Assembly: GCA_964366535.1 (NCBI GenBank)
Contig: CAYIUC010000005.1
Location: 1-43,866 of the forward strand
Direction of reading: 5' to 3'
Length of the DNA: 43,866 nt
From: an uncultured Candidatus Saccharibacteria bacterium
GTDB taxonomy: Bacteria; Patescibacteriota; Minisyncoccia; Phycocordibacterales; UBA10002
Of this stretch, positions 1 to 33,269 are shown piece by piece. Numbering within the stretch: the stretch's first letter is position 1; each line of letters opens with the position of its first letter. A program made the translations under genes and the position numbers. The notes beneath the pieces are model-generated. The model saw only the letters and a program-made list of their open reading frames with translations, ran no database searches and had not been told where the DNA came from.

Positions 1-151
1 GGGGGGGGGGGGGGCCCCCCGACAAAAAATGGAAAGGAAATTTTTGGTTTTTGCTCCCGCGACCAAAGGGAGCGGACGAGGCGCGCAGATTCGAGCGTAC
101 GATTCAATTCAGAGCCACCACGCGCTCCGCGCGTGCGACACATCATTTGTT

Positions 152-179
152 TTGGAAATAGGTTCGGACTTGGTACAAT
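152..179 (+). promoter_or_regulatory. candidate sigma70-type promoter of cca
   Basis: TTGGAA at 152-157, a 16-nt spacer, and TACAAT at 174-179 preceded by TGg (extended -10). The ATG lies 15 nt downstream and no Shine-Dalgarno is visible. Confidence 0.4.
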
Positions 180-194
180 AAACACACATCAAAA

Positions 195-1796
195 ATGACA
201 AAAGAAAAAGACACTTTCTGTATTCCCGAGGAAGTCGCCAAAGTCGCAGAAACCATTGAAAAGAAAGGTTTTGAGGCGTATTTGGTAGGTGGGTGTGTGC
301 GCGACTTGCTACTAGAAAGGAAACCTTCCGATTGGGACATTACCACAAACGCTACTCCCGACGAGATACAAAAGCTTTTTGCGGAATCGTTTTATGAAAA
401 TGAGTATGGCACAGTAGGTGTAGTAACTGCATCCGAGGACCCGACGCTCAAGGTAGTCGAGGTTACCCCATACCGTCTTGAAGGGGCGTATTCCGACAAA
501 AGGCGGCCGGATTCGGTGTCTTTCAGTAAAAATCTAGAAGACGACCTTAAACGCCGCGACTTCACTATTAATGCTATCGCACTAAAGATAGAGCCCGTCA
601 ATGCTATAAACGACACTCTCACGGACATTTCTAAAGGACAAGAAATAATTCATAAAGGACAAAATAAAATGTCCGATAATGTCCGTGAGAATTCTAAAAG
701 ACATAACATAAATCATAAAGGACATCTTGTTGACCCATATAAAGGACAGGGTGACTTAAAGAAAACCCTTATAAAATCAGTCGGAAACCCACAAGAGCGA
801 TTTGCGGAGGACGGGTTGCGTCTTTTACGGGCGGTACGCATAGCCGCAGAGCTCGGTTTTACTATTGAAAATGAAACAGCAGACGCAATATTCAAACAAA
901 ATACGATTTTGAAAGAAATAGCTCCAGAGCGAATCCGAGACGAGTTTACAAAGATTCTTATGTCAGACCGTCCAATGGAGGGCATTATGTTGTGTAGCAA
1001 ATTGGGGCTTTTGCAACATTTTCTACCTGAAATTGAGCAATCGTTTCAGGTGAAACAAAACAAAGCGCACTCATTCGGTGTAGGAGAACATCTGCTAAAA
1101 ACCGTTTCGCATGCGGCAAAGAAAGGGTTTTCTTTGGAAATACGCCTCGCTTCCCTCTTGCACGACATATCTAAACCAGAAACGCGACGATGGTCTGAAG
1201 AAAAGAAGGACTGGACCTTCTACGGTCATGATGTTACAGGCGCCAGAACCACAGAAAGAATATTAACTCGCCTAAAGTTTCCCGTGAAACTTACCGAAAA
1301 GGTAGTAAAGTTGGTTCGTTGGCATATGTTCTTCTCGGATACAGAGGTCATAACGCATTCTGCGGTACGCCGACTACTTATGAATGTAGGCAAGGAAAAC
1401 ATATGGGACCTTATGAATGTGCGCGCCTGCGACCGTATAGGCACCGGTAGGCCAAAGGAAAGCCCGTACCGCCTCCGCAAGTACCACTCTCTTATAGAAG
1501 AAGTGATGCATGACCCAATAACGGTTGGCATGTTGAAAATCAAGGGTGGGGAAGTCGTGGAGATTGCAAAAATAAAGCCAAGCCCAAAAATTGGTTTCAT
1601 CCTTCATGCACTCCTTGAGGAGGTTTTGGATGATTCAAATAAGAACACCAAGGAGTATCTCACACAAAGAACCGTTGAATTATCTGCTCTTTCTGACAAA
1701 GAACTAGAGAAATTGGGTAAAAAGGGTAAAGAGAAACGAGTAGAAACGGAGGAGGCAAAGATAAGCGAGATTCGTGGTAAATACTGGGTAAAGTAA
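195..1796 (+). CDS. cca: CCA-adding tRNA nucleotidyltransferase (class II, with HD domain) carrying an in-frame repeat insertion
   Basis: 533-aa ORF. It shows GGCVRDLLL...DWDITT and RRDFTINA nucleotidyltransferase motifs and a C-terminal HD motif (LLHDISKP). About 40 extra residues of KGQ-type heptad repeats lie between RRDFTINA and DPYKGQGDL. Confidence 0.9.
   Translation: MTKEKDTFCIPEEVAKVAETIEKKGFEAYLVGGCVRDLLLERKPSDWDITTNATPDEIQKLFAESFYENEYGTVGVVTASEDPTLKVVEVTPYRLEGAYSDKRRPDSVSFSKNLEDDLKRRDFTINAIALKIEPVNAINDTLTDISKGQEIIHKGQNKMSDNVRENSKRHNINHKGHLVDPYKGQGDLKKTLIKSVGNPQERFAEDGLRLLRAVRIAAELGFTIENETADAIFKQNTILKEIAPERIRDEFTKILMSDRPMEGIMLCSKLGLLQHFLPEIEQSFQVKQNKAHSFGVGEHLLKTVSHAAKKGFSLEIRLASLLHDISKPETRRWSEEKKDWTFYGHDVTGARTTERILTRLKFPVKLTEKVVKLVRWHMFFSDTEVITHSAVRRLLMNVGKENIWDLMNVRACDRIGTGRPKESPYRLRKYHSLIEEVMHDPITVGMLKIKGGEVVEIAKIKPSPKIGFILHALLEEVLDDSNKNTKEYLTQRTVELSALSDKELEKLGKKGKEKRVETEEAKISEIRGKYWVK
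620..750 (+). repeat. tandem ~21-24 bp repeats carrying the TAAAGGACA motif, in frame inside cca
   Basis: Exact TAAAGGACA starts at 632, 653, 716 and 740. A variant TAAAAGACA starts at 694, and inverted TGTCC half-sites are at 670 and 680. The encoded peptides are SKGQEII/HKGQNKM/SDNVREN/SKRHNIN/HKGHLVDP/YKGQGDL. Confidence 0.85.
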
Positions 1797-2077
1797 GGCG
1801 AAGTTACACATGAAACAATAACTCCAGCAATAAAAACCGCCCAGTCATATTGGGCAATCTTCTTGATGCCCGGCGACTAGGCGGTATAGGAGATGGGGAA
1901 ACACAAAAATGGAATCTCAAGAAAAGCATTATCCAATTTTAGAAGTGTTTTTGGGGATATGTTTTCTTAGGAATAGAGCGGTAATGTTTCCCGTGTAACA
2001 TCGGCGCGGAAGGTTAACAACTAAAAAAAATTCTGCGCTAATGTCGAGAAAATGTTGCTGTCAAAGAACGAAAAGTG

Positions 2078-2262
2078 TCTAAAGGACATTATAAAGGACA
2101 TGTCCGTTACGCGTAAAGGACATTGTCCTTTAGAAACTGTGGATAAACTCCATAAATACGCAGAAAGACACACTTCTAATGGACATTCAAGGTTATAAAG
2201 GACAATTCTAAAGGACAGTGTCCTTTAGAATTGTCCTTTATAAATTGGTTGCTGTCCTTTAG
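2078..2262. promoter_or_regulatory. dense array of TAAAGGACA / TGTCCTTTA sites with nested palindromes and a consensus DnaA box
   Basis: Nine exact 9-mers occur: forward at 2080, 2092, 2114, 2196 and 2209; reverse at 2124, 2219, 2232 and 2253. There is a 19-nt palindrome at 2114-2132 and a 51-nt perfect palindrome at 2193-2243. TGTGGATAA at 2138-2146 is the reverse complement of TTATCCACA. Confidence 0.8.
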
Positions 2263-2297
2263 ATTTTGTGTCGTAACTACAAGATACGAGCCGAAGG

Positions 2298-2326
2298 TTG
2301 CAAAGAAAAAGGTTTTGTGCTATACT
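2298..2326 (+). promoter_or_regulatory. promoter of the rpsO-NYN-pnp cluster
   Basis: TTGCAA at 2298-2303, a 17-nt spacer, and TGcTATACT with TATACT at 2321-2326. The ATG lies 10 nt downstream. Confidence 0.6.
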
Positions 2327-2336
2327 TTGACTTACT

Positions 2337-2603
2337 ATGATAACCAAGAGAAAAAAGCAGAATGTAATTAAAGAGGTCGGCATGCACGATAAGGACACAG
2401 GGTCTCCGGAAGTGCAGGTCGGCATTTTGTCGCGCCGCATAGACGAACTTACACAGCACCTGAAAACGCACAAGAAGGATATACACTCGCGCCGAGGATT
2501 GCTCGGTATGGTGGCGGCACGCCAGTCGCATTTGCGTTATCTTCAAAAGAAGTACCCGAAACGCTATACTTCAGTAGTGCGAAAACTAGAACTAAAAAAG
2601 TAA
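2337..2603 (+). CDS. rpsO: 30S ribosomal protein S15
   Basis: 88 aa with the motifs DTGSPEVQVGILS...HLKTHKKDIHSRRGLL...YL typical of uS15. Confidence 0.95.
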   Translation: MITKRKKQNVIKEVGMHDKDTGSPEVQVGILSRRIDELTQHLKTHKKDIHSRRGLLGMVAARQSHLRYLQKKYPKRYTSVVRKLELKK

Positions 2604-3127
2604 TGTCGATTATAAAACACAAAGAACAGCGCGTTGCGGTGTTTATTGACACGCAAAATCTATATCACAGCGCAAAAAACCTGTACCGAGCGAATGTGAA
2701 CTTCGGCCAGGTGGTGAAGGATGCCGTTGCTGGAAGGCAGCTAGTACGCGCTCTCGCGTATGTTATTACTACTGAAAACGGCGAAGAAAAAGGGTTTTTT
2801 GACGCGCTTGCCAAGGTTGGCATTGAAACCAAGACGAAACCATTGCAAATTTTCGGTAGCGGCGCAAAAAAGGCGGACTGGGATGTGGGGTTGGCGATAG
2901 ATGCCGTAAAGATTGCGCCGAAGGTTAATGCCGTAGTATTGCTCTCGGGAGACGGCGATTTTATACCTCTTGTGGAATACCTGCAGACCAACCAAGGATG
3001 CCAAGTAGAGGTGGTGGCGTTTGGTAAATCCACTTCGCAAAAACTTATTGAGGCGGCAGACGACTTTACCGATTTGGATGAAAGCCCCCGCAAATATTTG
3101 CTCGGCAATAGCCGCGGCCGGCGATAG
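2603..3127 (+). CDS. NYN/LabA-like domain protein (predicted ribonuclease fold)
   Basis: 174 aa with motifs VFIDTQNL, DVGLAIDA and LLSGDGDFIPL. The start overlaps the rpsO stop as TAATG. Confidence 0.75.
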   Translation: MSIIKHKEQRVAVFIDTQNLYHSAKNLYRANVNFGQVVKDAVAGRQLVRALAYVITTENGEEKGFFDALAKVGIETKTKPLQIFGSGAKKADWDVGLAIDAVKIAPKVNAVVLLSGDGDFIPLVEYLQTNQGCQVEVVAFGKSTSQKLIEAADDFTDLDESPRKYLLGNSRGRR

Positions 3128-6005: not shown

Positions 6006-6365
6006 ATGGACAAAAAGACGATAAAACATTTTGAAGAAAAATTAAATGCGGAATTCGCGGAATTGCGCTCGGAGCTTGAAGGTATCGGGCGCAAAAACCC
6101 CGACAACCCGAAAGATTGGGAGGCGACGCCGGAAAAAATGGACACGCTCGCCTCGGACGAAACAGAAATAGCCGATAGTTTGGAGGCATTTGAGGGAAAT
6201 ACGGCAATTCTGAAACAATTGGAAATCCGCTACAACGAAGTCAAAGCGGCGCTCGCGCGCGTAAAGGCGGGCTCGTACGGGCTGTGCGAAAAGGGTGGGG
6301 AAGTGATAGAGAGGGACCGCCTTGATGCAAACCCTGCAGCAACGACTTGCAAAAAACACCTATAG
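6006..6365 (+). CDS. DksA/TraR-family-like protein with a degenerate C-terminal zinc finger
   Basis: 119 aa with a coiled-coil N-terminus and a C-terminal YGLCEKGGEVI...RLDANPAATTCKKH layout. The usual CxxC pairs read CxxG and CxxH. TATAAT at 5991-5996 lies 9 nt upstream. Confidence 0.55.
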   Translation: MDKKTIKHFEEKLNAEFAELRSELEGIGRKNPDNPKDWEATPEKMDTLASDETEIADSLEAFEGNTAILKQLEIRYNEVKAALARVKAGSYGLCEKGGEVIERDRLDANPAATTCKKHL

Positions 6366-6381
6366 CGATACGCTATTTTTT

Positions 6382-7959
6382 ATGAGTTTCGCCAAAGTTT
6401 GGAGCGCGGAAACACACCTGCTCGCGCCGCATCTAATATCTGTTGAAACAGACATTGCGCCAGGACTACATTCGTTTTCCGTCGTTGGGCTACCCGACAA
6501 GGCGGTAGAAGAATCGCGCGATCGCGTGTCGGCAGCAATTAAAAACAGCGGGTTCAAGTCGCCGAAGCAGAAAAACCAGAAAGTAACCGTCTCGCTCGCG
6601 CCGGCAGACCTAAAGAAAGAGGGGCCGGCGTTTGATTTGCCAATGGCGCTCGCGTACCTCAAAGCCGTTGGCGCTATCCGATTTGAAACGGAAAAGCGTT
6701 TGTTCCTAGGCGAACTTTCGCTTGATGGCGCACTACGCTCGGTTGCAGGCGTGTTACCGCTTGTAGAAGAAGCACGGAGGCGCGGATTTACAGAAGTATT
6801 CGTGCCACAAGAGAATGCGCGCGAAGCGGCGCTCGTGCGAGGAATTACGGTGTTTGCCGCGCAGACGCTTTCTGCGGTGATCGCGCATTTGATTCCAAAA
6901 GATCTGCCGGGAGACGGCGAGGACGCGCCGTTTGTAAAAAAGCGCGCTATAAAACCAACACCAGAAACGCCGATTCCTGACGAGCCGCCAGAAGCACAGA
7001 TTGATTTTTCAGACATTAAAGGGCAGGAAACCGCGAAGCGCGGGCTAGAAATTGCTGCGGCGGGAGGACACAACATATTGCTCTGGGGTCCGCCTGGGAC
7101 GGGCAAGACAATGCTCGCAAAAGCGTTTGCGGGAATCCTTCCGCCGCTTTCGTTTCAAGAAATGCTAGAGGTAACGGGCATACATTCTGTCGCGGGAAAA
7201 ATTCGCGACACACTAATAGCACACCCTCCCGTGCGAAGCCCGCACCATACTGCCTCGTATGTTTCCATAACAGGTGGAGGAGCGATACCGAAGCCGGGCG
7301 AGGCGACGCTAGCGCATAGGGGAGTGCTTTTCCTAGACGAATTCCCAGAGTTTGACAGGCGAGTGATAGATACCCTCCGCGAGCCATTGGAAGAACGAAT
7401 GATTTCCGTATCGCGTGCGCGCGGCTCGGCACACTTTCCTGCGCATTTTATATTGATTGCGGCGATGAATCCGTGCCCATGCGGAAACAAAGGCGTGAAA
7501 GGGAAATCGTGCGTGTGCGCGCCGAATGCGGCGGAACGCTACCGCAGGAAAATATCTGGACCGGTGATTGACCGCATTGACCTTGCAATTGAAGTGTCTG
7601 CCGTAGAGCACGGCAAGCTCTCGGAGGAGGCGCGAGACGGCTCGCTTTCGCGCGAGGTACGCGCGCGCGTCCTTGCGGCGCGCGCGCGGCAGGCAGAACG
7701 GTTTGCGAAGGCGAAACTTTCGGTAAAGACAAATGCCGATACTCCGGCAAAGCATATCGCCAAGCTTATTCCACTGGATGAAAAAACTAAGGGAATGTTA
7801 AACAGCAACGCGCGGCGCTTAGACCTATCGGCGCGCTCGTACCACCGCGTGATGAAGCTCGCGCGCACGATTGCCGACCTTGCCGAGCGCGAGCGCGTTT
7901 CCGAAGACGACATTTTAGAAGCCCTCCGCTACCGCCCGAAGCAGGTGCTGAATCAGTAA
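6382..7959 (+). CDS. comM: YifB/ComM family Mg-chelatase-like AAA+ ATPase
   Basis: N-terminal Lon-like domain (VVGLPDKAVEESRDRV...LAPADLKKEG), Walker A GPPGTGKT and Walker B LFLDEFPEF. I prefer the internal start MSFAKVW at 6382, which removes the overlap with the upstream gene. The track ORF starts at 6322. Confidence 0.85.
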   Translation: MSFAKVWSAETHLLAPHLISVETDIAPGLHSFSVVGLPDKAVEESRDRVSAAIKNSGFKSPKQKNQKVTVSLAPADLKKEGPAFDLPMALAYLKAVGAIRFETEKRLFLGELSLDGALRSVAGVLPLVEEARRRGFTEVFVPQENAREAALVRGITVFAAQTLSAVIAHLIPKDLPGDGEDAPFVKKRAIKPTPETPIPDEPPEAQIDFSDIKGQETAKRGLEIAAAGGHNILLWGPPGTGKTMLAKAFAGILPPLSFQEMLEVTGIHSVAGKIRDTLIAHPPVRSPHHTASYVSITGGGAIPKPGEATLAHRGVLFLDEFPEFDRRVIDTLREPLEERMISVSRARGSAHFPAHFILIAAMNPCPCGNKGVKGKSCVCAPNAAERYRRKISGPVIDRIDLAIEVSAVEHGKLSEEARDGSLSREVRARVLAARARQAERFAKAKLSVKTNADTPAKHIAKLIPLDEKTKGMLNSNARRLDLSARSYHRVMKLARTIADLAERERVSEDDILEALRYRPKQVLNQ

Positions 7960-9302: not shown

Positions 9303-9539
9303 ATGAAAGAAGAAATGCCACGCCGCCAATCGCTCTTTTGGGATGTGGACCCGAAAACAATTGACCCAGAAAAGCACGGCCGCTATATCATTGAGCGGAT
9401 TTTGGACTTCGGCGATGATGCGGAGGTGCGGTGGGTATGGCGATACTACGACCACGCGCTCATACGCGATGTGGTGCAGCGTTCGCGCGCGCTTTTCCCA
9501 GAAACGCGCTCTTTTTGGAACCTAATGTTTGCAACATAA
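9303..9539 (+). CDS. small conserved-looking protein upstream of the AbiEii-type gene (possible antitoxin partner)
   Basis: 78 aa. TGcTATAAT at 9287-9295 lies 7 nt upstream of the ATG. The stop is 5 nt before the next start. Confidence 0.55.
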   Translation: MKEEMPRRQSLFWDVDPKTIDPEKHGRYIIERILDFGDDAEVRWVWRYYDHALIRDVVQRSRALFPETRSFWNLMFAT

Positions 9540-9544
9540 ACAAC

Positions 9545-10207
9545 ATGAATGAATGGATTCCTAAACGCGAAGTTTTACCTGCATCCACGCAAAAGGCATT
9601 GGAATATGCCCGCAAAGAACACTGGCTGGAAAAAAGCACTTGGTACCTAGCTGGTGGCACAGCGCTCGCGCTACAGGTCGGACATCGGCAATCGGTTGAC
9701 CTGGACTTCTTTACACAAGAAAAAACCTTTGCCCCCGCGGAAGTAACGCGGCATTTCCCCGATACGGTGTGGAAAAGTACAATAGTTAAAGAAGGCACCG
9801 TGTACGGTACGCTATGCAAAGCAAAAGTAAGTTTTATCGCATATCCGTTCTTTATCCCCGCCGTTCCTTTTTTAAGATATGGCGCTGTCGCCGTGCTTGA
9901 TAAAGACGACATTGCCGTTATGAAAATAATTGCGCTCAGTCAGCGCGGACGCAAACGCGATTTCGTTGATTTGTATTGGTACGCGAAACATAACGCCCCA
10001 CTAGAATCGGTGCTTACCAAATTACCTAGGCAATACCCGACCGTTGCGCATAACTTCCAGCATATTATCAAGAGTTTAACCTATTTCAACGACGCAGACG
10101 CCGACCAAATGCCTGCATTGCTTTTTGACGCGACATGGGAGGACATTAAAGAGTATTTCCGCGCGGAAGTGCCGGCGATTGCGAGAAAACTTATCGGGCT
10201 AGATTAG
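9545..10207 (+). CDS. nucleotidyltransferase of the AbiEii/AbiGii toxin family
   Basis: Contains the motif WYLAGGTALALQVGHRQSVDLDFF. I chose the start MNEWIPK at 9545 to avoid overlap with the upstream gene. The track ORF starts at 9431. Confidence 0.7.
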   Translation: MNEWIPKREVLPASTQKALEYARKEHWLEKSTWYLAGGTALALQVGHRQSVDLDFFTQEKTFAPAEVTRHFPDTVWKSTIVKEGTVYGTLCKAKVSFIAYPFFIPAVPFLRYGAVAVLDKDDIAVMKIIALSQRGRKRDFVDLYWYAKHNAPLESVLTKLPRQYPTVAHNFQHIIKSLTYFNDADADQMPALLFDATWEDIKEYFRAEVPAIARKLIGLD

Positions 10208-16440: not shown

Positions 16441-17430
16441 ATGATGCGGACACGCCCAATTACAATATCCGCCGTTATATTTCTCGCCGCACTCGTCGGC
16501 TTCTTTGCCTATTCTGAATACATAAATCAAGGTGAAGAGGTTGCGGCGCGAGAAGAAGCGCCCGCGAGCGTTCTCGGTTCTGCGGCGCTTATCGCCGACA
16601 GCGACCGCGACGGATTAAAGGATTGGGAGGAAGAACTTTGGCGCACTGCTCCCGACAAACCAGATACAGATGCCGACGGCACGAATGATGCGGAGGAAAT
16701 AAAAAACGGAAGGAATCCGCTTATTGCAGGCCCTGAAGATAAGCTAGATGCCGCAACCGCCGCGACTAAGGTGAACCCAGACGCAAAAACGACTACAACC
16801 GACACCGAGCGCCTTGCGAGAGAAATCTTTGGCACCTACCTTTCCACCAGGCAAGAAGGTCTGCCCCTTTCGCAAAATGAAATTGCAAACATAATAGACA
16901 CGGTATCTGCAAGCGTACCAGAAGAAAGCCCTAAAATATTTACCGCTACGGATGTGAAAACATTTGCCGATGAAAATAGCGCGGCGTTACGCGCGTACGG
17001 AAATGCACTCGGCTCAGTGCTCAAAAAGCCATGGCCCGCGCGCGAAAACGAAATTGCCGTCTTTGAACGCGCAATACAAGACGAAAACCCCGAGACGGCG
17101 CGGCTAGACCTTGCCAACCTCACGCCCATTTCGCTCGCATACGGCAATATGGGGAAAGACATCGCACGCATACAAGCCCCCGCGGGCGCGCTAGCTTCGC
17201 ACCTGCGCGCCGCAAACGCCACAATGGAGATAGGCGAGAGCGTGCGCGGTATGAGCTCTGCTCTAGATGATCCCATCAAGGCAGTATCAAGTGTCGCTCG
17301 CTACTTCGGCGCAGGCCCTCGACTAGGAGACGCGCTTGCGGAATTGCGAGCATACCTAGAAAACCGAGGTATTTCGTACACAGAAGACGAAGATGGTTAC
17401 GCGCTGTGGAATGCGACCGCTAACCAGTAA
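16441..17430 (+). CDS. membrane-anchored protein with thrombospondin type-3-like calcium-binding repeats
   Basis: N-terminal TM helix ITISAVIFLAALVGFFAY. Repeats are DSDRDGLKDWEE and DTDADGTNDAEE. TATACT at 16430-16435 lies 5 nt upstream of the ATG. Confidence 0.6.
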   Translation: MMRTRPITISAVIFLAALVGFFAYSEYINQGEEVAAREEAPASVLGSAALIADSDRDGLKDWEEELWRTAPDKPDTDADGTNDAEEIKNGRNPLIAGPEDKLDAATAATKVNPDAKTTTTDTERLAREIFGTYLSTRQEGLPLSQNEIANIIDTVSASVPEESPKIFTATDVKTFADENSAALRAYGNALGSVLKKPWPARENEIAVFERAIQDENPETARLDLANLTPISLAYGNMGKDIARIQAPAGALASHLRAANATMEIGESVRGMSSALDDPIKAVSSVARYFGAGPRLGDALAELRAYLENRGISYTEDEDGYALWNATANQ

Positions 17431-17446
17431 ATTAACCGCCCAGAGA

Positions 17447-17526
17447 CAACCCCTCCTGCCTCCCCCAAGGGGAGGTTCTGACCCTCCCTTCCCTTTGGGG
17501 AGGGAGTAGGAGGGAGGGGTGGTGTG
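17447..17526. repeat. nested G/C-rich palindromic element
   Basis: Hairpins CCTCCCCcaaGGGGAGG and CCCTCCCttccctttGGGGAGGG lie within CCCCTCCT...AGGAGGGAGGGG arms. The element ends in GGGGTGGTG. Confidence 0.8.
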
Positions 17527-17614
17527 TTTGATTGGGTTTTCCACTTCCGCACACAAAACAAACCCTCTATAATAAGGGCACGGAAGACGCCTCGCTAAAC
17601 GCGACAGGCGAATT

Positions 17615-19705
17615 ATGCGTTGCAAACACATTACAACTCTGCTCATCGTCTCTCTTTTCGTAACTGGCTCGCTATTTACGCCGACGAAGCGCGCCCATGC
17701 GCTTGTGAGCTGTATTCCAGCCATCGCCCCTATTCCAGATATACCACTAGCCGTACCTGTACAAAACTTCGGAGAAATGACGCGGCAAAATATTGCCAAT
17801 ACTTTCAGTGCCTCCAATTTCACCAAAGAGTGCATTCTGGATGCGATGGTTACATTCCTCAAAGAAGCGCTGATACAAAACATCACCGGCTCCATTGTGG
17901 ATTGGATAAACAACGACTTTGAGGGCGGTCCGGCGTTCGTAACCGACCCCGCAGGGTTTTTCGTAAATATTGCCGACGAGACCGCCGGGCGGTTTATAGA
18001 AAATCAATTAGGTCCCATCGGACAACTGCTTTGCAGTCCGTTTGACTTGCGACTGCGTTTGAATCTTTGGCTTGCAACAAGCGCCTCGCGCAAGCAGTAC
18101 ATCGGCTGTCGCCTTACCGATGTGCAGATGAATGTGCACGATGCGTTTACACAAGGTTCGTTTATCGCTTCCGGCGGTTGGAAAACATTTAACGCAATAA
18201 CTTCCGACCCTCGCAACAACCAATACGGCGCGTTCCTCTACGCCTCGGACGCTCTTAACAATGAATTCGTCAAAAGGGCGAATGAAACACTTCGCGATCT
18301 CTCGTACGGTAGGGGATTTCTGTCGTTTAAAAAATGTTCTGAGTGGGTAGATGCATCAAGTGAGGGAACGGGCGAGGGGAGCGGAAAAAGATGCGCAAAA
18401 TACAAAGTGGAAACCCCTGGCTCTCTTATCAACAACCAACTAAATAATGCGTTCGGCTCGGAATTGCGCAAATTTGAGTTGGCGGACGAAATAAACGAGG
18501 TGTTTCAAGCGCTTGTAAACTATGGGCTTCGGCAAGTGTTTACAGCGACAGGCGGCGGACTCCGTGGCGCGAGCAAGGCGGCGGCGGGACAAGAAAGCGC
18601 GGCGTCGCGCCTGCGAAGGTCAGAGGGTACGATAATGAACGAGGTATATGCAAACACGCAAACCGACACAACCGGTGGATTTATAACTACAAAATATGAT
18701 TTGGCTTCTAAGGACGACAATACGCTCACAAAAGTTGTGGCGGAAACAAAATCAGGAAGCGCGGGCGGCAGTAATGGAGAGCGGTTGTCGCCAGACCGAA
18801 ATCTTGCGCTTAATAGGCCGGCATCACAATCGGGATATTATGCCTTACCGCGCTATGATGCCGACAAAGCAGTCAATGGAGGCAAGGACGCGGTCAAGGG
18901 CGATTGTTATGGCTTCAACTGCGCCGCAGTAACCTCCAAATCATCCCCGATATACTGGGAAGTTGCGCTAGGGAAAACATATTCCATAAAAGAAGTGTGG
19001 ATACACAAGGCAAACGACCTTTCTTATGATGCAGCGTTGGGGACATTTAAACTTTCTATCTTAAAGCCGGACCGCGGTATCGCGTACACGAAAGAAGTTG
19101 CGGCCAATTCTGCCACTGCGATTCCACTCGTGATGCCGAACATCAATACCGCTGGCGCGATTGTGCGCATTGAGCGCGCGAATGGAGACGAACTTGCGCT
19201 TGCAGAAGTAGAAGTGTACGGCACGGAATGGGAGACGGCGACTGCAAACACGCCGCCGCCAACTGGCGTTACCGCTCCTCCACCTAGTGCAACTCCAGTG
19301 GTTTCGGTACAACGAAATGTGGAACTGAAAATTGACGGTCCGGTATTTACCATCAATGAACCGATCGTAAATGCGCATATAGGCATCTCAATGGACCAAC
19401 AAGTGGGTACGACATACAAGCCGTTTGCGCCACAGCAAGCGTTTTCAAAAATCCTCGTGCGGGTAAAAAATCAGGAAACGGGTGTGGAGAAGTTTACTGA
19501 GGAGTTTACCAATACGGAAATAAAAACATACCGCACCACCCAAACCTTTAGTGCCACGGCGGGAGAAAAAATAACCGTCGGATACGAGTTTACTCCACAA
19601 AGCGGCGCAAAGGGAAACTACGCGCTTAACACCGAAATAATCGGCTCGGATGGAAATCAGGTTCCCGGTGCCGTAAGCACAATGAGAATTCAAGCACCAA
19701 ATTAA
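17615..19705 (+). CDS. secreted protein with a C-terminal F5/8 type C (discoidin)-like domain; first gene of the T4SS-like operon
   Basis: Signal peptide MRCKHITTLLIVSLFVTGSLFTPTKRAHA. Discoidin-like block: NLALNRPASQSGYY...AVNG...YWEVALGKTYSIKEVWIH...LALAEVEVYG. Confidence 0.6.
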   Translation: MRCKHITTLLIVSLFVTGSLFTPTKRAHALVSCIPAIAPIPDIPLAVPVQNFGEMTRQNIANTFSASNFTKECILDAMVTFLKEALIQNITGSIVDWINNDFEGGPAFVTDPAGFFVNIADETAGRFIENQLGPIGQLLCSPFDLRLRLNLWLATSASRKQYIGCRLTDVQMNVHDAFTQGSFIASGGWKTFNAITSDPRNNQYGAFLYASDALNNEFVKRANETLRDLSYGRGFLSFKKCSEWVDASSEGTGEGSGKRCAKYKVETPGSLINNQLNNAFGSELRKFELADEINEVFQALVNYGLRQVFTATGGGLRGASKAAAGQESAASRLRRSEGTIMNEVYANTQTDTTGGFITTKYDLASKDDNTLTKVVAETKSGSAGGSNGERLSPDRNLALNRPASQSGYYALPRYDADKAVNGGKDAVKGDCYGFNCAAVTSKSSPIYWEVALGKTYSIKEVWIHKANDLSYDAALGTFKLSILKPDRGIAYTKEVAANSATAIPLVMPNINTAGAIVRIERANGDELALAEVEVYGTEWETATANTPPPTGVTAPPPSATPVVSVQRNVELKIDGPVFTINEPIVNAHIGISMDQQVGTTYKPFAPQQAFSKILVRVKNQETGVEKFTEEFTNTEIKTYRTTQTFSATAGEKITVGYEFTPQSGAKGNYALNTEIIGSDGNQVPGAVSTMRIQAPN

Positions 19706-19708
19706 CCA

Positions 19709-21652: not shown

Positions 21653-21658
21653 CCTCAT

Positions 21659-22702
21659 ATGAAATTTACACATACACAAGCCCTAGAATCTCTTAACAAA
21701 CTCCCGCAAGAGACGCGCGAGCGCGTCACTTCGCAAGAAATAACCGACGCGACTATTCGTATCGCGGAAAGAAATGTAGTTCCAAAAGAAAAGATCCTTG
21801 CTTTTAGTTCTGCAGTAGGAACTGTACTACTCGGTTTGATTCAAAAAGAAAAACTTGCCGAGCAGTTGGTTGCAGAGTTGCAACTGCCGCCAGAAAAAGC
21901 CGCCGCGATTGCGGGGGAGGTGGAGAAAGAGATTTTTAATAGTTCTCCCTCTGCCCCTTTTTCAAAGGGGAAGTCCCCGAGTCCGTCTAAGGCGGACGAG
22001 GGGGTAGGGGTTGGTCACGCACAAGGCATACCCCTCCGCCCCGCCCCGCCAGTCGGCGAGGCGGGGCACCTCCCCTCTCAAAGAGGGGAGGGGGAACAAA
22101 AACAAATTTCTCCCCCTCGCCCCGTCCCCATCCGCAAGCCACTACCCCCTCTTGCTCCCTCCCTTTTGGGGAGGGCGGGGGGAGGGGTTGTACCCTCTCT
22201 CCAATCCCTCCTCGCCGACATTCGCCGCGGCACGGCATACGACGAGAATCGTATAGCCGATGCCTTCCGAAAAACGCCGATTGAAGTCAAGCAGTCGCTA
22301 GAGAGTGTCGGGTTTCTATCACGAATGGAAGGCGTTGCGAAAAAGTTTGGTTTAAATGTGGAAGAAACTGGGGAGCTCGTGAGCGAGTCGGGGCTCGTAA
22401 TGCTCGGGCTAACACAACCAATGAACTTCGTAGACAATCTCACGAAACGATTGCGACTGCCGCGCGACCGCGCGATGGCGGTAGGGCAAGCGGTAAATAT
22501 GGAGGTACTGCGCCCAGTGCGGGAAATTTTGCGGAAGATGAGTGTGCCGTCGGAGGAGCTGCGATTTGCGCCGCCCGCCACCCCTGCTCCTTCACAAAAT
22601 CCTCCCCCAACCCCCTCCTTTAGTAAAGGAGGGGGCGGAGGGGGCGGATTTTCTCCAGTGCAAAAATACACTACCGACCCCTACCGCGAACCAATAAACT
22701 AA
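21659..22702 (+). CDS. hypothetical protein with two homologous ~60-aa modules separated by a repeat-element-derived Pro/Gly linker
   Basis: IAERNVVPKEK...GTVLLGLIQ...LQLPPEKAAAIAGEV aligns with VAKKFGLNVEE...GLVMLGLTQ...LRLPRDRAMAVGQAV. The linker at 21945-22191 consists of palindromic elements. Confidence 0.6.
   Translation: MKFTHTQALESLNKLPQETRERVTSQEITDATIRIAERNVVPKEKILAFSSAVGTVLLGLIQKEKLAEQLVAELQLPPEKAAAIAGEVEKEIFNSSPSAPFSKGKSPSPSKADEGVGVGHAQGIPLRPAPPVGEAGHLPSQRGEGEQKQISPPRPVPIRKPLPPLAPSLLGRAGGGVVPSLQSLLADIRRGTAYDENRIADAFRKTPIEVKQSLESVGFLSRMEGVAKKFGLNVEETGELVSESGLVMLGLTQPMNFVDNLTKRLRLPRDRAMAVGQAVNMEVLRPVREILRKMSVPSEELRFAPPATPAPSQNPPPTPSFSKGGGGGGGFSPVQKYTTDPYREPIN
21945..22191. repeat. 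three tandem G/C-rich palindromic elements, in frame in a CDS
   Basis: Copies at 21945-22016, 22031-22097 (opposite arm order) and 22108-22191. Each contains CCCC...GGGG hairpins. Confidence 0.8.
22596..22652. repeat. 57-nt nested palindrome (AAAATCC-type element) in frame in a CDS
   Basis: AAAATCCTCCCCCaaCCCCCTCCTTTAgTAAAGGAGGGGGcgGAGGGGGcGGATTTT. It is translated as NPPPTPSFSKGGGGGGGFS. Confidence 0.85.
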
Positions 22703-22703
22703 T

Positions 22704-23105: not shown

Positions 23106-23123
23106 GCGGGGTATACTATCACC

Positions 23124-23750: not shown

Positions 23751-23757
23751 AAATACT

Positions 23758-27975: not shown

Positions 27976-29193
27976 ATGCAAAACAAAACCAAAAAAATAA
28001 TCTGGGGGGTTCTGATTGTACTACTAGCGGCGGCTGGAGCATTTGCGTATTGGTGGTTCTTTATGCGTCCCAGTGCCGAAGTTGCCGTGAGTGAGCCCGT
28101 GACATTTCCAACAGGAGAAAATATCGGCATCGACGAAGGTAGTCCAGAGTTGCTCGGCGGACAAGGCAATATCGGGATAGAGGAAGGAGAGGCCCCGCTC
28201 CTACGGCAACTTACCAAAAACCCCGTTGCTGGAGCAGTAATTTTCTCGCGCGCCGGCTCTACACTCGTGCGCTATGCCGAGCGCGGCACTGGGCATTTAT
28301 TTGAAATCGGCGCAGACGATGCCGAACCAAAACGCATCTCCAACCAGACAATTCCAGAAATCGGCGAGGTGCTTTGGAAGCCAGATGGGTTGGGTATTAT
28401 CGTACGCTACGCAAAGGAATCGGCGGGTACGGAATACATTGAGAGTTTTTATGCAAGCGTTCCCGCCGACGCTACAGAAGACGCGCCGCTCCGCGCATCT
28501 TTCCTCCCGCGCAATATCCGAACGCTTGCGTTCTCGCCTACCGGCAATACGCTCTTTTATCTTTCGGAAAACTCTTCCGGCTCCTCCGGTATTCTCGCTG
28601 CGCCCGACGGCACGCGCAAAAACACCTTGTTTGAACTGCCTCTAAAAGATCTTGCAGTAATATGGTCGGTAAACGATTCGCTCTTCCTCACGACGCGCGC
28701 GTCGTCGGGCGCTCCCGGGCACCTCTTCTCTGTCGGTACACAAAGCGGAGCAGTTGATGTTGTCGCAAGCGACACTGGGCTCACAGCGCTTACAAGCCGA
28801 GGAGGAACTCTAGCGCTTCTTGCATCAAGCGGGGAAGGCGGCTCGGGTCTTTCGCTCTTTAATCGCTCTTTGGGAGACATAACACCGCTCGGGCTACAAA
28901 CACTCGCCGATAAGTGCGTATGGGGCAAGCGTACGCGCACAAACGCATATTGCGCGGTACCAAGCGGAATACCAGGAAACAACTTCCCCGATAGTTGGTA
29001 CCAAGGGGTTATACAAACAGAAGACGCTTTGTGGGCAATTGATGCCGAAGACGCGCGCGCTTCTATTGTCGCAGACATAAGCGAGGTTGCGCGTGAGAGC
29101 ATTGATGCTTTTAATTTTGATATCAGCCCAGACGACAAATATCTACTTTTCCAAAACAAAAACGATTTAAGCTTGTGGCTGCTTAAGATTTAG
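27976..29193 (+). CDS. membrane-anchored beta-propeller-like (TolB/PD40-like) protein
   Basis: I prefer the start MQNKTKKIIWGVLIVLLAAAGAFAYWWFF at 27976. Repeated segments of the type LAFSPTGNTLFYLSE and WKPDGLGIIVRY are present. Confidence 0.55.
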   Translation: MQNKTKKIIWGVLIVLLAAAGAFAYWWFFMRPSAEVAVSEPVTFPTGENIGIDEGSPELLGGQGNIGIEEGEAPLLRQLTKNPVAGAVIFSRAGSTLVRYAERGTGHLFEIGADDAEPKRISNQTIPEIGEVLWKPDGLGIIVRYAKESAGTEYIESFYASVPADATEDAPLRASFLPRNIRTLAFSPTGNTLFYLSENSSGSSGILAAPDGTRKNTLFELPLKDLAVIWSVNDSLFLTTRASSGAPGHLFSVGTQSGAVDVVASDTGLTALTSRGGTLALLASSGEGGSGLSLFNRSLGDITPLGLQTLADKCVWGKRTRTNAYCAVPSGIPGNNFPDSWYQGVIQTEDALWAIDAEDARASIVADISEVARESIDAFNFDISPDDKYLLFQNKNDLSLWLLKI

Positions 29194-29935
29194 AGACACC
29201 CGATGTTTGCCGCCTATCAACATCGGGTGTCAGGCGGCGCCGCACTACAACCTCCTGCACAATCGCAAAAAGGTTAGAAGTGGTCCAGTAGAGCGCGACT
29301 GCGCCGGAGATGGTATATGCAGCGATTGCCGCCACAATCGGCATTACATACTTCATTTGCATATGCATACCGTGCATCAACTCCCCTTGAAATGATCCGT
29401 CGCGCGAGCCGGGAGTCGGTGGCGGCATAACTAACTTTACCTGGAAAAATTGCGTGATGCCGGCAAGCGCCGCAAGAAAGATACTTTTCCCAGCAATGTC
29501 TATAAGACCTAAAAATTCCATATTCACTTCTGGGCGTGGGATAAAGGAGTAGCGAAGCGCCTCGTTGATGTCTGGGAGCCCGCCGCGAAAGAACACATAG
29601 TAGAGCGAAATAATAACAGGAAGTTGTATAAGAAGAAGGAAAAACCCCGCGAACGGGTTGATGCGCTTTTCTTTGTAGAACGCCATCGTAGCGCGCGCGT
29701 ACCCCTCGCGGTCGCCATCAAATTTCTTTTTTAGCGCGTCTAGCTCTGGTTGGAACTTACGCATAGCAAATTGCGTTTCAATAGAGCGTTTAGAGAGGGG
29801 AAAGAGTATAAGCTTCACCGCTATTGTGAGGATAATAACCGCGAGACCGGCATCAGCTCCCGGTAGAATGTCCATCAAAAAAACCAACCCATTATAGAGC
29901 GGTTGGTAGAATACTTCCTTAAACAATTCTAGCAT
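29183..29935 (-). CDS. yidC: membrane protein insertase YidC/Oxa1 (short form)
   Basis: 250 aa with GLAVIILTIAVKLILFPLSKRS...MRKFQPELDALKKKF. It lies downstream of rnpA as in the canonical operon. Confidence 0.9.
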   Translation of the reverse strand: MLELFKEVFYQPLYNGLVFLMDILPGADAGLAVIILTIAVKLILFPLSKRSIETQFAMRKFQPELDALKKKFDGDREGYARATMAFYKEKRINPFAGFFLLLIQLPVIISLYYVFFRGGLPDINEALRYSFIPRPEVNMEFLGLIDIAGKSIFLAALAGITQFFQVKLVMPPPTPGSRDGSFQGELMHGMHMQMKYVMPIVAAIAAYTISGAVALYWTTSNLFAIVQEVVVRRRLTPDVDRRQTSGVSKS

Positions 29936-29953
29936 TTGCTTATCGTAGCAAAA

Positions 29954-30280: not shown

Positions 30281-30290
30281 GTGTCACTTC

Positions 30291-30362
30291 GCAGAAAGCG
30301 GAATTTTTTCCTCTTTACCCTCTCTACGGGGGTCCTACGAGATAAAAAATTCCGCTTTCTGC
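30291..30362. repeat. 72-nt hairpin element, copy 2 (perfect 19-bp stem, conserved 34-nt loop)
   Basis: GCAGAAAGCGGAATTTTTT, then a 34-nt loop, then AAAAAATTCCGCTTTCTGC. It fills the rpmH-rnpA spacer. Confidence 0.85.
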
Positions 30363-30366
30363 TTCG

Positions 30367-32171: not shown

Positions 32172-33269
32172 ATGAAAGGAGAATGTTTCAAAGATAAACT
32201 AGAACAGGCGATGCGGCACGCAAGCCGTATGACCAGCAAAAACCCATCTCTTCCTGTGCTTGCCTGCGTGCTAGTAGAGGCAAAGAAGGGGTCGCTTCTT
32301 GTGCGCGCCACCAACATAGATGTGTCTTACGAGGCAAGCGTACCTGCACGCGTTGAGAAAGATGGAGTTGTCGCTCTTTCCGGCGCGGCGCTTACTTCGT
32401 TTTTGTCCGGATCTTCGGCGCAGAATATTTCTTTTAGTTCTACAGCTGGAGGTATATCGGTGCGCGTAGGAAACTCAAACGCAACATTCAAAGTGTTTCC
32501 TCACGAGGATTTTCCAAATTTTTCGCACCCGAAAGAGTCCGCAAACCAAATTCCTGTGTCGCAAGTGCTTTCTGGCCTAAAGTCGGTACTCTACAGCGCT
32601 TCCATGTCGTCGGTGCGCCCAGAACTTTCCAGTATTTATATATTTTCAGAGGGGAATGGCGTGGTGTTTGTGGCAACCGACTCTTTCCGCCTTGCGGAAA
32701 AGCACATAACACTTCAGAAAAACATTCAGTTTACACCGACACTTGTGCCCGCCAAAAACGCATCGGAACTTCTGCGTGTGCTTTCTGAAATGGAGCAGGA
32801 ATTATGTTTTGTGTCTAGCGAAAAAGGTCAGTTTGCGGTGCAAGGTGGAGGAATGCTCTTTACCTCGCGGACCATAGACGGCTCATTTCCCGACTACAAG
32901 CAAATTATTCCAAAGGATTTTGTAACGACCATTACCATCTTAAGAGATGATTTTCTAAAGGCGCTTCAACTTATTGCCGGGCTTTCCGAAAAATCAAACC
33001 AGATTGTTCTCAATGTGCCGAAGGAGGAGGGTGAGATTTCTTTGTTTGTGAAAAACGCAGAGGTGGGGGAGGGGACGAGCAAAATAAAAGCGGCTGTTTC
33101 CGGTGAGCCGTTTGAGATGAGCTTCAACGCGAGATATCTCTTGGACTGCCTAAACGCTATTTCCGAGCCGTCCGTATCGCTCTTATTCTCAGGCGCTGCA
33201 AAACCATTGATGCTCACAGGCACAGGCAACGCCTCCTTCCGCTACATCGTAATGCCGATGAATAGGTAG
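32172..33269 (+). CDS. dnaN: DNA polymerase III beta sliding clamp
   Basis: 365 aa with a three-domain layout and a C-terminal ...RYIVMPM motif. It lies immediately downstream of dnaA. Confidence 0.9.
   Translation: MKGECFKDKLEQAMRHASRMTSKNPSLPVLACVLVEAKKGSLLVRATNIDVSYEASVPARVEKDGVVALSGAALTSFLSGSSAQNISFSSTAGGISVRVGNSNATFKVFPHEDFPNFSHPKESANQIPVSQVLSGLKSVLYSASMSSVRPELSSIYIFSEGNGVVFVATDSFRLAEKHITLQKNIQFTPTLVPAKNASELLRVLSEMEQELCFVSSEKGQFAVQGGGMLFTSRTIDGSFPDYKQIIPKDFVTTITILRDDFLKALQLIAGLSEKSNQIVLNVPKEEGEISLFVKNAEVGEGTSKIKAAVSGEPFEMSFNARYLLDCLNAISEPSVSLLFSGAAKPLMLTGTGNASFRYIVMPMNR

Follow-up and report, generated by a model that had tools for sequence, protein, structure and literature searches.

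Why should a nine-nucleotide word that is arrayed in the non-coding DNA downstream of cca also be reiterated in frame inside the cca gene of small groundwater bacteria, and is it the protein or the DNA that is selected there? The window, the whole 43.9 kb stretch of DNA analyzed here, contained 13 exact copies of TAAAGGACA on both strands, compared with a mean of 0.33 in dinucleotide shuffles (n = 100; maximum three copies, with none of the 100 reaching 13). The motif observation of the sequence-only reading was correct and far above chance. All 13 copies were located in two clusters, four in cca and nine in an array at 2080–2261, and a search of the other ~43 kb of the window returned no exact copy. 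Inside cca, the four copies reported at 632, 653, 716, and 740 were all found on the plus strand with the 21 and 24 bp spacings given, the two inverted TGTCC half-sites were present at 670 and 680, and the quoted translation of the repeat block was exact for the open reading frame at 195–1796. TAAAAGACA was likewise present in the gene but starts at 695 rather than at 694. The features of the gene are as follows:

195–1796, plus strand: cca, encoding a class II CCA-adding enzyme of 533 aa with a C-terminal HD domain (Pfam, AlphaFold, and fold matches)
585–725, plus strand: in-frame insertion between motifs B and C (residues ~131–177, ~42 aa extra)
611–724, plus strand: two diverged 63-bp tandem units building the insert (611–661 versus 674–724, 75% identical)
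632–640, plus strand: motif copy 1, TAAAGGACA, reading (S)KGQ
653–661, plus strand: motif copy 2, TAAAGGACA, reading (H)KGQ
670–703, plus strand: decayed copies, two inverted (TGTCCGATA at 670 and TGTCCGTGA at 680) and one direct (TAAAAGACA at 695)
716–724, plus strand: motif copy 3, TAAAGGACA, reading (H)KGH, the counterpart of the native first turn YKGH of relatives
740–748, plus strand: motif copy 4, TAAAGGACA, reading the native motif C residues (Y)KGQ

Further degenerate copies were identified at 607 (TAAACGACA) and 619 (TCACGGACA). At the positions of the decayed copies (670–703), relatives of the window carried perfect inverted copies that read NVLY.

On sequence and predicted fold, the cca product is a class II tRNA nucleotidyltransferase with an HD domain, a family in which sequence alone does not reliably separate CCA-adding from CC-adding, A-adding, or poly(A) polymerase activity. 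It displayed the Pfam domains PolyA_pol (PF01743, E = 9e-34), PolyA_pol_RNAbd, HD, and tRNA_NucTran2_2, and motifs A (GGxVRD), B (RRDFTxNA), C (DxxxGxxDL), and D (EDxLRxxRAxR) were invariant in a 30-sequence alignment. The AlphaFold model (pLDDT 85.5, pTM 0.80) gave Foldseek best matches to 1MIV, 6QY6, and 3WFR with target-normalized TM-scores of 0.67–0.72, and 1MIV and 6QY6 are CCA-adding enzymes. The statement that motifs B and C normally lie close together was borne out by the solved CCA enzymes, and alignment to 6IBP, 1MIV, and the 491-aa enzymes of a sister clade delimited the insertion. 6IBP and 1MIV aligned to residues 15–130 and 178–313 of the cca product, with five residues in between compared to 47 here, flanked by motif B as RRDFTINA and motif C as DPYKGQGDL. 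The Pfam matches left a gap at the same place, with 154 as the last residue of the head domain and 221 as the first of the RNA-binding domain. The structure model, which the sequence-only reading had proposed as a check, predicted a disordered loop on the surface of the head domain at the tip of a β-hairpin, with residues 136–170 below a pLDDT of 50 between strands 129–134 and 172–179. Tandem Repeats Finder reported nothing for positions 1–3000 because the two 63-bp units are too diverged.

Comparison with relatives suggested how the insertion arose. The CCA enzymes of the sister clade (491 aa, 72–73% identity) had no insert and retained the flanking arrays; at one such locus (L006), arrays were kept on both sides of cca and the downstream gene was rpmE instead of rpsO. 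The native turn codons Y-K-G-H/Q already spelled the site in insert-less genes (L006, L007, L061, and L064), and beyond the insert clade native KG[HQ] turns were always spelled as the site, with other residues found in site-less lineages. Variation in repeat number was observed between close relatives, as two strains 97% identical outside the gap were separated by a clean 72-bp indel between two copies of ttcTAAAGGACA. Every insert-bearing lineage had four to eight copies of the perfect 9-mer; gene conversion from the intergenic array could also keep intragenic copies perfect without a function in cca. Of the two origins that had been put forward for the block, expansion of a repeat array into an essential gene was upheld by the native site codons, the 63-bp duplication, and the 72-bp indel, while nothing pointed to a mobile element that would have transposed into cca. 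It had also been stated that comparably long segments without repeats in the CCA enzymes of other lineages would speak against the idea. Three Parcubacteria enzymes (P0030, P0031, and P0048) do carry unrelated inserts of 35–50 aa at the same hairpin, and the B–C loop is therefore generally permissive; the DNA-level signal nevertheless stands.

That signal was evident in how the copies are encoded. Across nine cca genes, all of the KG[HQ] tripeptides (35/35, a count that does not represent 35 independent events as the sequences are phylogenetically related) were spelled xxT-AAA-GGA-CAx against a background codon usage of 68% for AAA, 38% for GGA, and 26% for T at the third position. The same word in cca was also read as [IL]KD (four times) and, inverted, as [NSD]VLY (five times), such that it was used in three reading frames and both orientations within cca genes, and the TT[C/A] flank preference was alike inside and outside cca. 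Between relatives, motif positions differed by 0–11% in cca and 0–15% in the arrays compared with 7–39% and 21–50%, respectively, for the spacers, a contrast inflated by the preference of the aligner for motif-to-motif matching; third codon positions of cca differed by 36–79%. These patterns support selection on the intragenic copies as DNA, and the KGQ loop would be primarily a feature of the DNA and only secondarily one of the protein. The second suggestion of the sequence-only reading, that the cca body carries functional binding sites, is in this way backed at the DNA level by codons, frames, flanks, and divergence, while the binding of a protein to them is what we infer from these. The expanded array and the selected sites in cca, originally posed as alternatives, are supported as parts of one story.

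The sites in cca belong to a larger arrangement of three groups, one on the yraN/tRNA side, one inside cca, and one in the array at 2080–2261; the first lies beyond the contig end and was seen in relatives. Downstream of cca the window contains:

1800–2060, plus strand: conserved structured element from the cca stop to the array, a candidate small RNA or 3′ UTR structure
2080–2261, both strands: array of nine exact TAAAGGACA copies (five forward and four reverse), with one-mismatch copies at 2101 and 2177
2138–2146, minus strand: perfect match to the DnaA-box consensus (TTATCCACA), separating the array halves
2298–2326, plus strand: promoter-like TTGCAA-17-TATACT for rpsO (2337–2603), 37 bp past the last motif copy

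The array was kept in relatives even with a different downstream gene (L006), and it includes a perfect 51-bp palindrome at 2193–2243. The DnaA box at its center kept its position in all six relatives examined, a conserved pair of DnaA boxes was identified upstream of cca in relatives, and relatives differed in how far the rpsO promoter lies from the array. Direct repeats of the site peaked at spacings of 12–13 and 21 bp, and palindromes had 0–2 bp between half-sites. For the element at 1800–2060, RNAalifold predicted 49 pairs in an alignment of eight relatives, 17 of which showed compensatory changes, and the folding z-scores were −3.3 (plus strand) and −4.6 (minus strand). Rfam at gathering thresholds gave no match in the whole window, including 1800–2060, and microRNA matches on the 51-bp palindrome that appeared with E-value thresholds only were considered spurious.

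The extended site TT[C/A]TAA[A/C]GGACA recurred across the class Paceibacteria (Parcubacteria). A palindromic-pair scan of GTDB species genomes identified 115 loci, of which ~48 were Patescibacteria loci from 46 assemblies, and multi-copy loci were found in Taylor-, Kaiser-, Adler-, Nomura-, Campbell-, and Vogelbacteria. A single palindromic-pair locus was present in 44 of the 46 assemblies, a figure that refers to one palindromic arrangement in incomplete metagenome-assembled genomes. Long array-bearing contigs included JAGORR010000001.1 (638 kb, array at 96–104 kb), CAITGV010000001.1 (488 kb, array at 392–400 kb), and Ga0233425_10000524 (98 kb). Recurrent neighbors were yraN (19), cca (15), and a gene for a winged-helix protein adjoining ftsK (9; family fam3), and sites were located within the open reading frames of cca, fam3, and yraN, in fam3 in the disordered N-terminus and linker. 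At 36 Paceibacteria loci, perfect DnaA boxes reached a density of 0.85 per kb up to 120 bp from sites versus 0.08 elsewhere (~11-fold). Some contexts resembled ordinary operators, such as a palindrome that overlies the yraN stop a short way ahead of tRNA-Pro, or the sites 150–300 bp upstream of a giant surface-protein gene.

The sole candidate that emerged for the protein that reads these sites, offered only as a lead, is the Paceibacteria family fam3, in which an Avd-like four-helix bundle is joined through a disordered linker to a winged helix. The family has at least 643 members, and the gene that encodes it is itself dense with these sites; a search within 6 kb of cca in the clade and in the whole window of this study did not recover it. 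Other candidates were discarded. YraN is described as a single-stranded DNA endonuclease that natural transformation requires and that works together with the ComM helicase, the genes beside the array encode a membrane protein (312 aa) and a DksA/TraR-like protein (119 aa), and a TrmB-like gene near yraN at three loci (L003, L004, and L008) was not a recurrent neighbor. A LexA/SOS box was dismissed, as the LexA-like gene upstream at one locus (L001) had no sites at its promoter. The pattern of DNA uptake sequences, which occur about once per kb genome-wide, was not seen either, as the word was missing from the rest of the window (~43 kb) and from 231 kb of Paceibacteria dnaA loci. A ParB/parS site was not supported by sequence: the 9-mer is unrelated to the 16-bp palindrome TGTTNCACGTGAAACA, and parS-like words near cca were found only with one to three mismatches (at 1042, 1276, 1802, and 1985).

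The explanation we consider probable is a selected array of sites for a putative DNA-binding protein, an array whose repeats have expanded into a permissive loop. The sites would be the targets of a sequence-specific double-stranded-DNA-binding protein. From the comparative data, the codons of the turn YKGH...DPYKGQ would have spelled the site twice, 24 bp apart and in the same frame, and slippage or unequal recombination between these direct copies would duplicate whole codons, so that the array could grow or shrink without breaking the frame. Being disordered and at the surface, the loop that this adds to the protein would be tolerated. Most copies in cca would point one way because the forward orientation gives hydrophilic K-G-H/Q, the reverse gives V-L-Y, and one forward frame contains a stop. 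All sites together would form a multivalent platform for an oligomeric binder, to which the cca copies may add valency. As such a platform would include DnaA boxes and lie near dnaA, chromosome-level control, either of replication or of segregation, would be favored over repression of one promoter. A more specific and tentative version, which we consider less likely than not, is a class-wide Paceibacteria cis element, not described so far, in which arrays of the 12-mer with DnaA boxes would be read by an oligomeric protein with an Avd-like bundle and a winged helix for replication control or segregation, and which, in these highly compacted genomes, would be kept in part as an overlapping code within disordered loops of essential genes (cca, the binder gene, and the ends of yraN).

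Two rival explanations also assign the sites to a DNA-binding function. They could be ordinary transcription-factor operators for yraN, the adjacent tRNAs, the small RNA or rpsO, fam3/ftsK, and the giant surface protein, with the cca copies as auxiliary sites for looping or as a roadblock. Dimeric helix-turn-helix proteins typically have palindromes of this kind, with 0–2 bp between half-sites, and in L001 the start codon of yraN overlaps with a site. At least 12 lineages have a palindrome at the yraN stop or immediately behind it, 90–180 bp ahead of tRNA-Pro; sites also precede the giant surface-protein gene, and a promoter-like element overlaps sub-cluster A. Against these, 9–19 sites per locus together with selected arrays within open reading frames are unusual for operators, relatives differ in the array-to-rpsO-promoter distance and can have another downstream gene, no further site occurs in the 44-kb window, and the palindromic pair is confined to one locus in nearly all assemblies, such that we regard operators as rather unlikely. 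Somewhat less likely still is that the arrays are the chromosomal replication origin or an iteron-like part of it, with the 9-mers as sites for an origin-binding factor that cooperates with DnaA and origin DNA spilling into cca, as in RepA_N plasmids. This is encouraged by the perfect DnaA box in the array, the conserved pair upstream of cca, and the co-localization of boxes with sites. The direct repeats at 12–13 and 21 bp, together with the DnaA box, have the helical-repeat spacing of iterons. Raw GC skew follows the gene strand and a strand-corrected version was therefore used, which was −0.05 to the left of cca and +0.03 to the right and did not flip at dnaA in the window. Of the 24 genes from cca to dnaA, 21 head toward dnaA, and genes point away from each other at the yraN|cca boundary, a divergence that is sharper at fam3|ftsK loci; however, more distant yraN/cca loci displayed no orientation switch. 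The classical origin neighborhood is also elsewhere in the window, where yidC on the minus strand adjoins dnaA, followed by an AT-rich 208-bp spacer with two DnaA boxes and then dnaN. The cca-dnaA distance is 28.8 kb in the window and 15.6 kb, on the other side, in the rearranged relative Ga0233425_10000524. Eighty Paceibacteria dnaA loci (231 kb) had not a single TAAMGGACA site at a density of 0.71 relaxed DnaA boxes per kb, and no AT-rich unwinding element was evident in 1797–2336. The host gene of the repeats is an RNA nucleotidyltransferase gene and not that of a binder as in iteron systems, a role that fam3 may fit elsewhere. The 9-mer was also rejected as a variant DnaA box, as it matches the consensus at five of nine positions and the DnaA domain IV contacts in the window (motif GGRDHTTV) are canonical by comparison with the contacts of E. 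coli DnaA.

The remaining explanations deny the intragenic copies a function as binding sites. They would be a neutral by-product if slippage of the native copies were combined with gene conversion from the array 1.4 kb away, an idea that accommodates shifts in copy number between close strains, several decayed copies in the insert of the window itself, a sister clade that lives without the insert, and unrelated inserts at the same hairpin in other lineages. We consider it improbable, as four to eight perfect 9-mers persist while spacers and synonymous sites are near saturation, conversion tracts would homogenize the spacers too and these are not homogenized, and the native KG[HQ] turns beyond the insert clade always spell the site. 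A selfish palindromic repeat, resembling a Rickettsia palindromic element or a MITE inserted in cca and the intergenic region, would explain an in-frame insertion of palindromic DNA in a surface loop of an essential gene, as well as copies in a disordered segment of a second host gene, fam3. Dispersal is nonetheless missing, with 13/13 copies in two adjacent clusters in 44 kb; the conserved unit of 9–12 bp is not embedded in a longer element and lacks target-site duplications, and the same word occurs class-wide at syntenic loci. Viral contigs were essentially without the word, giving just seven isolated palindromes, each the sole match in its stretch, and a phage or plasmid origin was rejected on this basis. 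The selfish repeat is thus a very improbable source, and selection at the protein or RNA level is hardly more credible. A basic K-G-H/Q loop might aid tRNA binding, being rich in lysine and histidine and situated on the head domain of a tRNA-binding enzyme, or the AAAGGA of each copy might act in the mRNA as a Shine-Dalgarno-like or regulator-binding element. Neither accounts for the invariant codon choice or for a word that is read in three frames and inverted and that also populates non-coding arrays in both orientations, and the loop is predicted to be disordered, varies in copy number, and is dispensed with in the sister clade.

A selected array extending into a permissive loop has partial counterparts in known systems. 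In RepA_N-family plasmids of the pAD1 and pSK41 type, the origin repeats lie in frame inside rep; as would be the case in cca, where binding is inferred, protein-binding repeats occupy a variable, dispensable central segment of the coding sequence and one stretch serves as both cis element and linker peptide. In contrast, rep encodes the protein that binds the repeats of a proven origin, whereas cca is an unrelated essential enzyme gene beside a chromosomal element with a putative binder; the fam3 gene of other Paceibacteria is a closer analog of RepA_N rep than cca is. Rickettsia palindromic elements are selfish, dispersed, single-lineage repeats of 100–150 bp found in frame in protein genes. 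Like the cca insert, they add a surface-loop peptide to conserved or essential proteins from repetitive palindromic DNA, while the sites in cca differ as a 9–12-bp word at one syntenic locus that is class-wide and appears to be under purifying selection as DNA. Chromosomal parS sites are bound by ParB and one lies inside the spo0J/parB coding region; they share with the sites described here an origin-proximal and position-tolerant placement, often within genes, palindromic form, and few loci per chromosome, but are unrelated in sequence and are neither densely arrayed nor expanded as an insertion. DnaA-box clusters outside oriC, such as E. coli datA and DARS and the B. subtilis clusters, are accompanied by accessory-factor sites. 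The loci here similarly have conserved DnaA boxes away from the dnaA-dnaN spacer that are flanked by the sites of another putative factor, but with only one to three DnaA boxes per locus, far outnumbered by putative accessory sites that reach into coding sequence. Other inserts in class II CCA enzymes, 35–50 aa in other Parcubacteria, share the permissive B–C hairpin, while an insert made of a reiterated DNA word common to the flanking non-coding arrays was found in this clade only.

If true, the locus would be a clean natural example of dual-use sequence, in which a disordered loop of an essential and deeply conserved enzyme is dictated by selection on an array of DNA sites and not on the protein. 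A caution for annotation also follows, in that Parcubacteria proteins with KGH/KGQ-repeat inserts should not be taken to contain functional protein motifs there. The locus would also reveal a conserved cis element in an entire class of uncultivated bacteria with reduced genomes, for which, to our knowledge, almost nothing has been established on replication control, segregation, or transcription factors, and the defined 12-mer, the adjacency of DnaA boxes, and the candidate binder family provide handles for testing. Should the tentative class-wide version hold, the protein sequence of a housekeeping enzyme would have been shaped by selection on DNA-binding sites.

The exact word TAAAGGACA occurred 13 times on the two strands of the 43,866 bp window, compared with a mean of 0.33 copies in dinucleotide-preserving shuffles (0 of 100 reached 13). 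All 13 copies were confined to cca and to one intergenic array balanced in orientation (5 forward, 4 reverse); at one mismatch, two further copies appeared in cca (607 and 695) and two in the array (2101 and 2177). A sequence-only reading had reported the word as repeated in frame within cca (620-750), and its coordinates, translation, and spacings were correct in the window, except that the copy placed at 694 lies at 695.

Features of the window discussed in the text
195..1796, +: cca ORF, class II CCA-adding enzyme with HD domain, 533 aa
632, 653, 716, 740: exact TAAAGGACA copies within cca
2080-2261: intergenic array between cca and rpsO, nine exact TAAAGGACA copies
2138-2146, -: perfect DnaA box TGTGGATAA between the two array halves
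6322..7959: comM
29183..29935, -: yidC, directly upstream of dnaA
30617..31963: dnaA
31986 and 32107: DnaA boxes TGTGGAAAA and TTTTCCACA in the very AT-rich, 208-bp dnaA-dnaN spacer
32172..33269: dnaN

The closest cca homologues were from 'Parcubacteria group bacterium Gr01-1014_17', Taylorbacteria, Kaiserbacteria, and Paceibacterota MAGs and, judged by sequence, the window is a Parcubacteria/Paceibacteria contig. It begins, within 1-194, with a G14C6 homopolymer run that is probably an assembly-end artefact. The repeated cca block consists of two diverged tandem units of 63 bp (611-661 and 674-724). Alignment with the solved CCA-adding enzymes 6IBP and 1MIV, which match residues 15-130 and 178-313, delimited the insertion: 47 residues separate these blocks here, compared with five in 6IBP/1MIV. 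In a 30-sequence alignment of homologues, 'IALN' ran directly into 'ALIDPYKGQ' in the nearest clade without the insert (P0016-P0018; 491 aa, 72-73% identity), and repeat number varied among P0001-P0015 with 18-70 additional residues rich in KGH/KGQ and 'NVLYNSKGH'. Other Parcubacteria CCA enzymes (P0030, P0031, and P0048) contained unrelated, non-repetitive 35-50-aa inserts at the same hairpin between motifs B and C (RRDFTINA and DPYKGQGDL in the window; alignment A1, columns 230-290). The AlphaFold2 model (pLDDT 85.5, pTM 0.80) agreed with the solved enzymes except at residues 136-170, a beta-hairpin tip between strands 129-134 and 172-179 with pLDDT <50. Alignment and model together identify the insert as a predicted disordered surface loop at a permissive site.

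The contigs of relatives were retrieved and their DNA compared directly. Every K-G-H/Q tripeptide in nine cca genes (35 of 35) was spelled xxT-AAA-GGA-CAx, against a background usage in the same genes of 68% for AAA, 38% for GGA, and 26% for third-position T. A second frame of the 9-mer gave [I/L]KD four times in these genes, the inverted 9-mer gave [N/S/D]VLY five times in cca genes, and in relative L107 the 9-mer was translated as MSF immediately after motif B. The preference for TT[C/A] before the 9-mer was equal inside and outside cca; within the gene, this flank supplies the Ser, Tyr, and His codons ahead of KG. Divergence between relatives at motif positions was 0-11% inside cca and 0-15% in intergenic arrays, compared with 7-39% and 21-50% at spacer positions and 36-79% at cca third codon positions; these figures overstate independence, as the aligner favors motif-to-motif pairing and the sequences are related, but the direction is unambiguous. 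Outside the insert clade, KG[QH] at the native turn (L006, L007, L061, and L064) was always spelled as a site, and lineages without a site had FEGQ, FDGM, FNGR, YEGQ, and similar residues, such that even the 'native' YKGQ seems imposed by the DNA word. The loop, predicted to be disordered, contains an in-frame array of a conserved word that is under purifying selection at the DNA level, and this array is the same in kind as the flanking non-coding ones. The observation is genuine rather than artefactual, and the sequence-only interpretation is supported.

The insert-free relative L006 carries sites on both sides of cca: an upstream array (487, 504, and variants) and, downstream, ~13 TAA[A/C]GGACA sites (2794-3047), where the next gene is rpmE and not rpsO. 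The flanking arrays therefore predate the insert and are tied to cca and yraN rather than to rpsO. Two native site copies in cca are 24 bp apart in a single frame, so any slippage or unequal exchange between them would add whole codons. Array copy number changes by recombination between copies; P0004 and P0009 share 97% identity apart from one clean indel of 24 aa (72 bp) that is bounded by two ttcTAAAGGACA copies. The bias of cca copies (39 forward, 5 reverse) fits coding constraints since one forward frame holds a stop codon, another encodes hydrophilic KG[HQ], and the inverted word is translated as VLY.

A conserved ~260-nt element (1800-2060, +) separates the array from the cca stop codon; it has four helices, compensatory changes in 17 of 49 predicted pairs across eight relatives, and G-U pairs favoring the + strand. 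It matched no Rfam family and, as a cca-linked element of Paceibacteria, is a candidate for a novel small RNA or a structured 3' UTR. A minus-strand promoter-like TTTACG-18-TATAAT (2088-2117), made by the spacer of two motif copies, faces this element. The sole window matches to the parS consensus TGTTNCACGTGAAACA (1042, 1276, 1802, and 1985; 1-3 mismatches) clustered within the 3' half of cca and at the two termini of the element, two being encoded by conserved cca residues (SFQVKQ and KFPVKL). Elsewhere, the window holds an AbiEii-family toxin gene and an unannotated ORF block with PrgI and a VirB4/TraG-like ATPase (9431-10207 and 16441-25572), the latter block resembling the type IV secretion system known for Patescibacteria.

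When GTDB species, represented by one genome each, were scanned for the palindrome pair TAAAGGACA-N(0-2)-TGTCCTTTA, 115 loci were identified, including ~48 Patescibacteria loci from 46 assemblies; most of the remainder were single palindromes in unrelated phyla, and viral contigs yielded only seven, all isolated. Clustering of flanking ORFs at 43 multi-copy loci revealed recurrent neighbors: yraN/UPF0102 (19 loci), cca (15), fam3, a ~300-aa protein family adjoining ftsK (9), and xth (6). In a third recurrent context (L027, L032, L046, L100, L121, and L122), the sites were 150-300 bp upstream of a gene for a giant, repetitive surface protein (1200-1600 aa). At least 12 lineages, including many distant Paceibacteria, have a TAAAGGACA/TGTCCTTTA palindrome that overlaps the yraN stop codon or immediately follows it (L028 1847, L050 6052, L051 812, L061 2570, L015 1545, and others), typically 90-180 bp upstream of tRNA-Pro; several of them use the word's own TAA as the stop codon. 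YraN is described in a preprint as an endonuclease needed for natural transformation and a partner of the ComM helicase. The relatives carry tRNA-Gly(gcc) and tRNA-Arg(tcg) between yraN and cca; the window contig ends short of tRNA-Arg(tcg), tRNA-Gly(gcc), a DnaA-box block, and yraN, all directly upstream of cca in all relatives, and ARAGORN detected no tRNA in the whole window. No published description of the class-wide motif was found.

The fam3 family (at least 643 Paceibacteria members) repeats the principle of sites in a disordered coding segment. Its genes, divergent from ftsK (L058 3221-4048, L105 5198-6157, L112 3473-4393, and other loci), carry up to ~ten sites within the ORF. The predicted fold combines an N-terminal four-helix bundle like the 23S-rRNA-IVS/Avd proteins 2GSC, 2RLD, and 8UB7 (target-normalised TM-score 0.83-0.85), a linker (170-203) predicted as disordered, and a C-terminal winged helix that matched BlaI, ArsR, MarR, and AspA less strongly. 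Sites fall in the disordered N-terminus and linker, translated as KGQ, KGH, KDT, or VLY, and KG[HQ] was 17-fold above shuffled expectation in 120 members. The sites in its own gene make fam3 the only candidate binder, a gene that contains the binding sites of its product being a familiar arrangement; no member was detected in the window, nor in this clade within a distance of 6 kb from cca.

Perfect DnaA boxes accompany the sites. One occupies the same array position in the window and all six relatives examined, and relatives share a conserved block TGTCCGTTATACACA-N11-TTATCCACA in the yraN to tRNA-Gly interval, where the DnaA-box pair TTATACACA-N11-TTATCCACA overlaps a motif copy (L001 5663-5691 and L003 5741-5769). 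Across 36 Paceibacteria loci, perfect boxes numbered 0.85 per kb within 120 bp of sites versus 0.08 per kb elsewhere (~11-fold). That the array is a true origin would be favored by gene orientation in the cca to dnaA interval (21 of 24 genes point toward dnaA), by the strand-corrected GC-skew component that changes at cca (-0.05 left, +0.03 right) with no flip at dnaA, and by the sharply divergent gene orientation at fam3|ftsK loci. However, we do not think that it is oriC proper, since the yidC-dnaA-spacer-dnaN stretch at 29183-33269 is the classical origin neighborhood and 80 Paceibacteria dnaA loci held zero TAAMGGACA sites (relaxed DnaA boxes, 0.71 per kb). The array locus remains near dnaA despite rearrangement, as in Ga0233425_10000524 dnaA lies on the other side of cca, at a distance of 15.6 kb.

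The word is probably the site of a sequence-specific, likely oligomeric, DNA-binding protein, and the three site groups around cca would act jointly as one multivalent platform. Site density, tolerance of coding sequence, DnaA-box coupling, dnaA proximity, and varied gene contexts point to chromosome-level control close to the origin, in replication or segregation, as the most likely role. The main rival is an ordinary regulon with multiple operators; after it come a true origin, a neutral by-product, a selfish repeat, and selection at the protein or RNA level. In appearance the cca array is closest to Rickettsia palindromic elements, whose defining features (dispersed, bounded, lineage-specific) the array did not show on testing. 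In working principle it is closest to RepA_N plasmid rep genes, which carry origin repeats in frame within their variable center. parS within parB and DnaA-box clusters (datA, DARS) share coding tolerance, origin proximity, and DnaA coupling with the array but differ in sequence and architecture. The array is filed among coding-embedded cis-element arrays, involving a class-wide motif and a putative binder; it is a striking case of dual coding, in a gene that is essential, and offers a way into the chromosome biology of bacteria that have not been cultivated.
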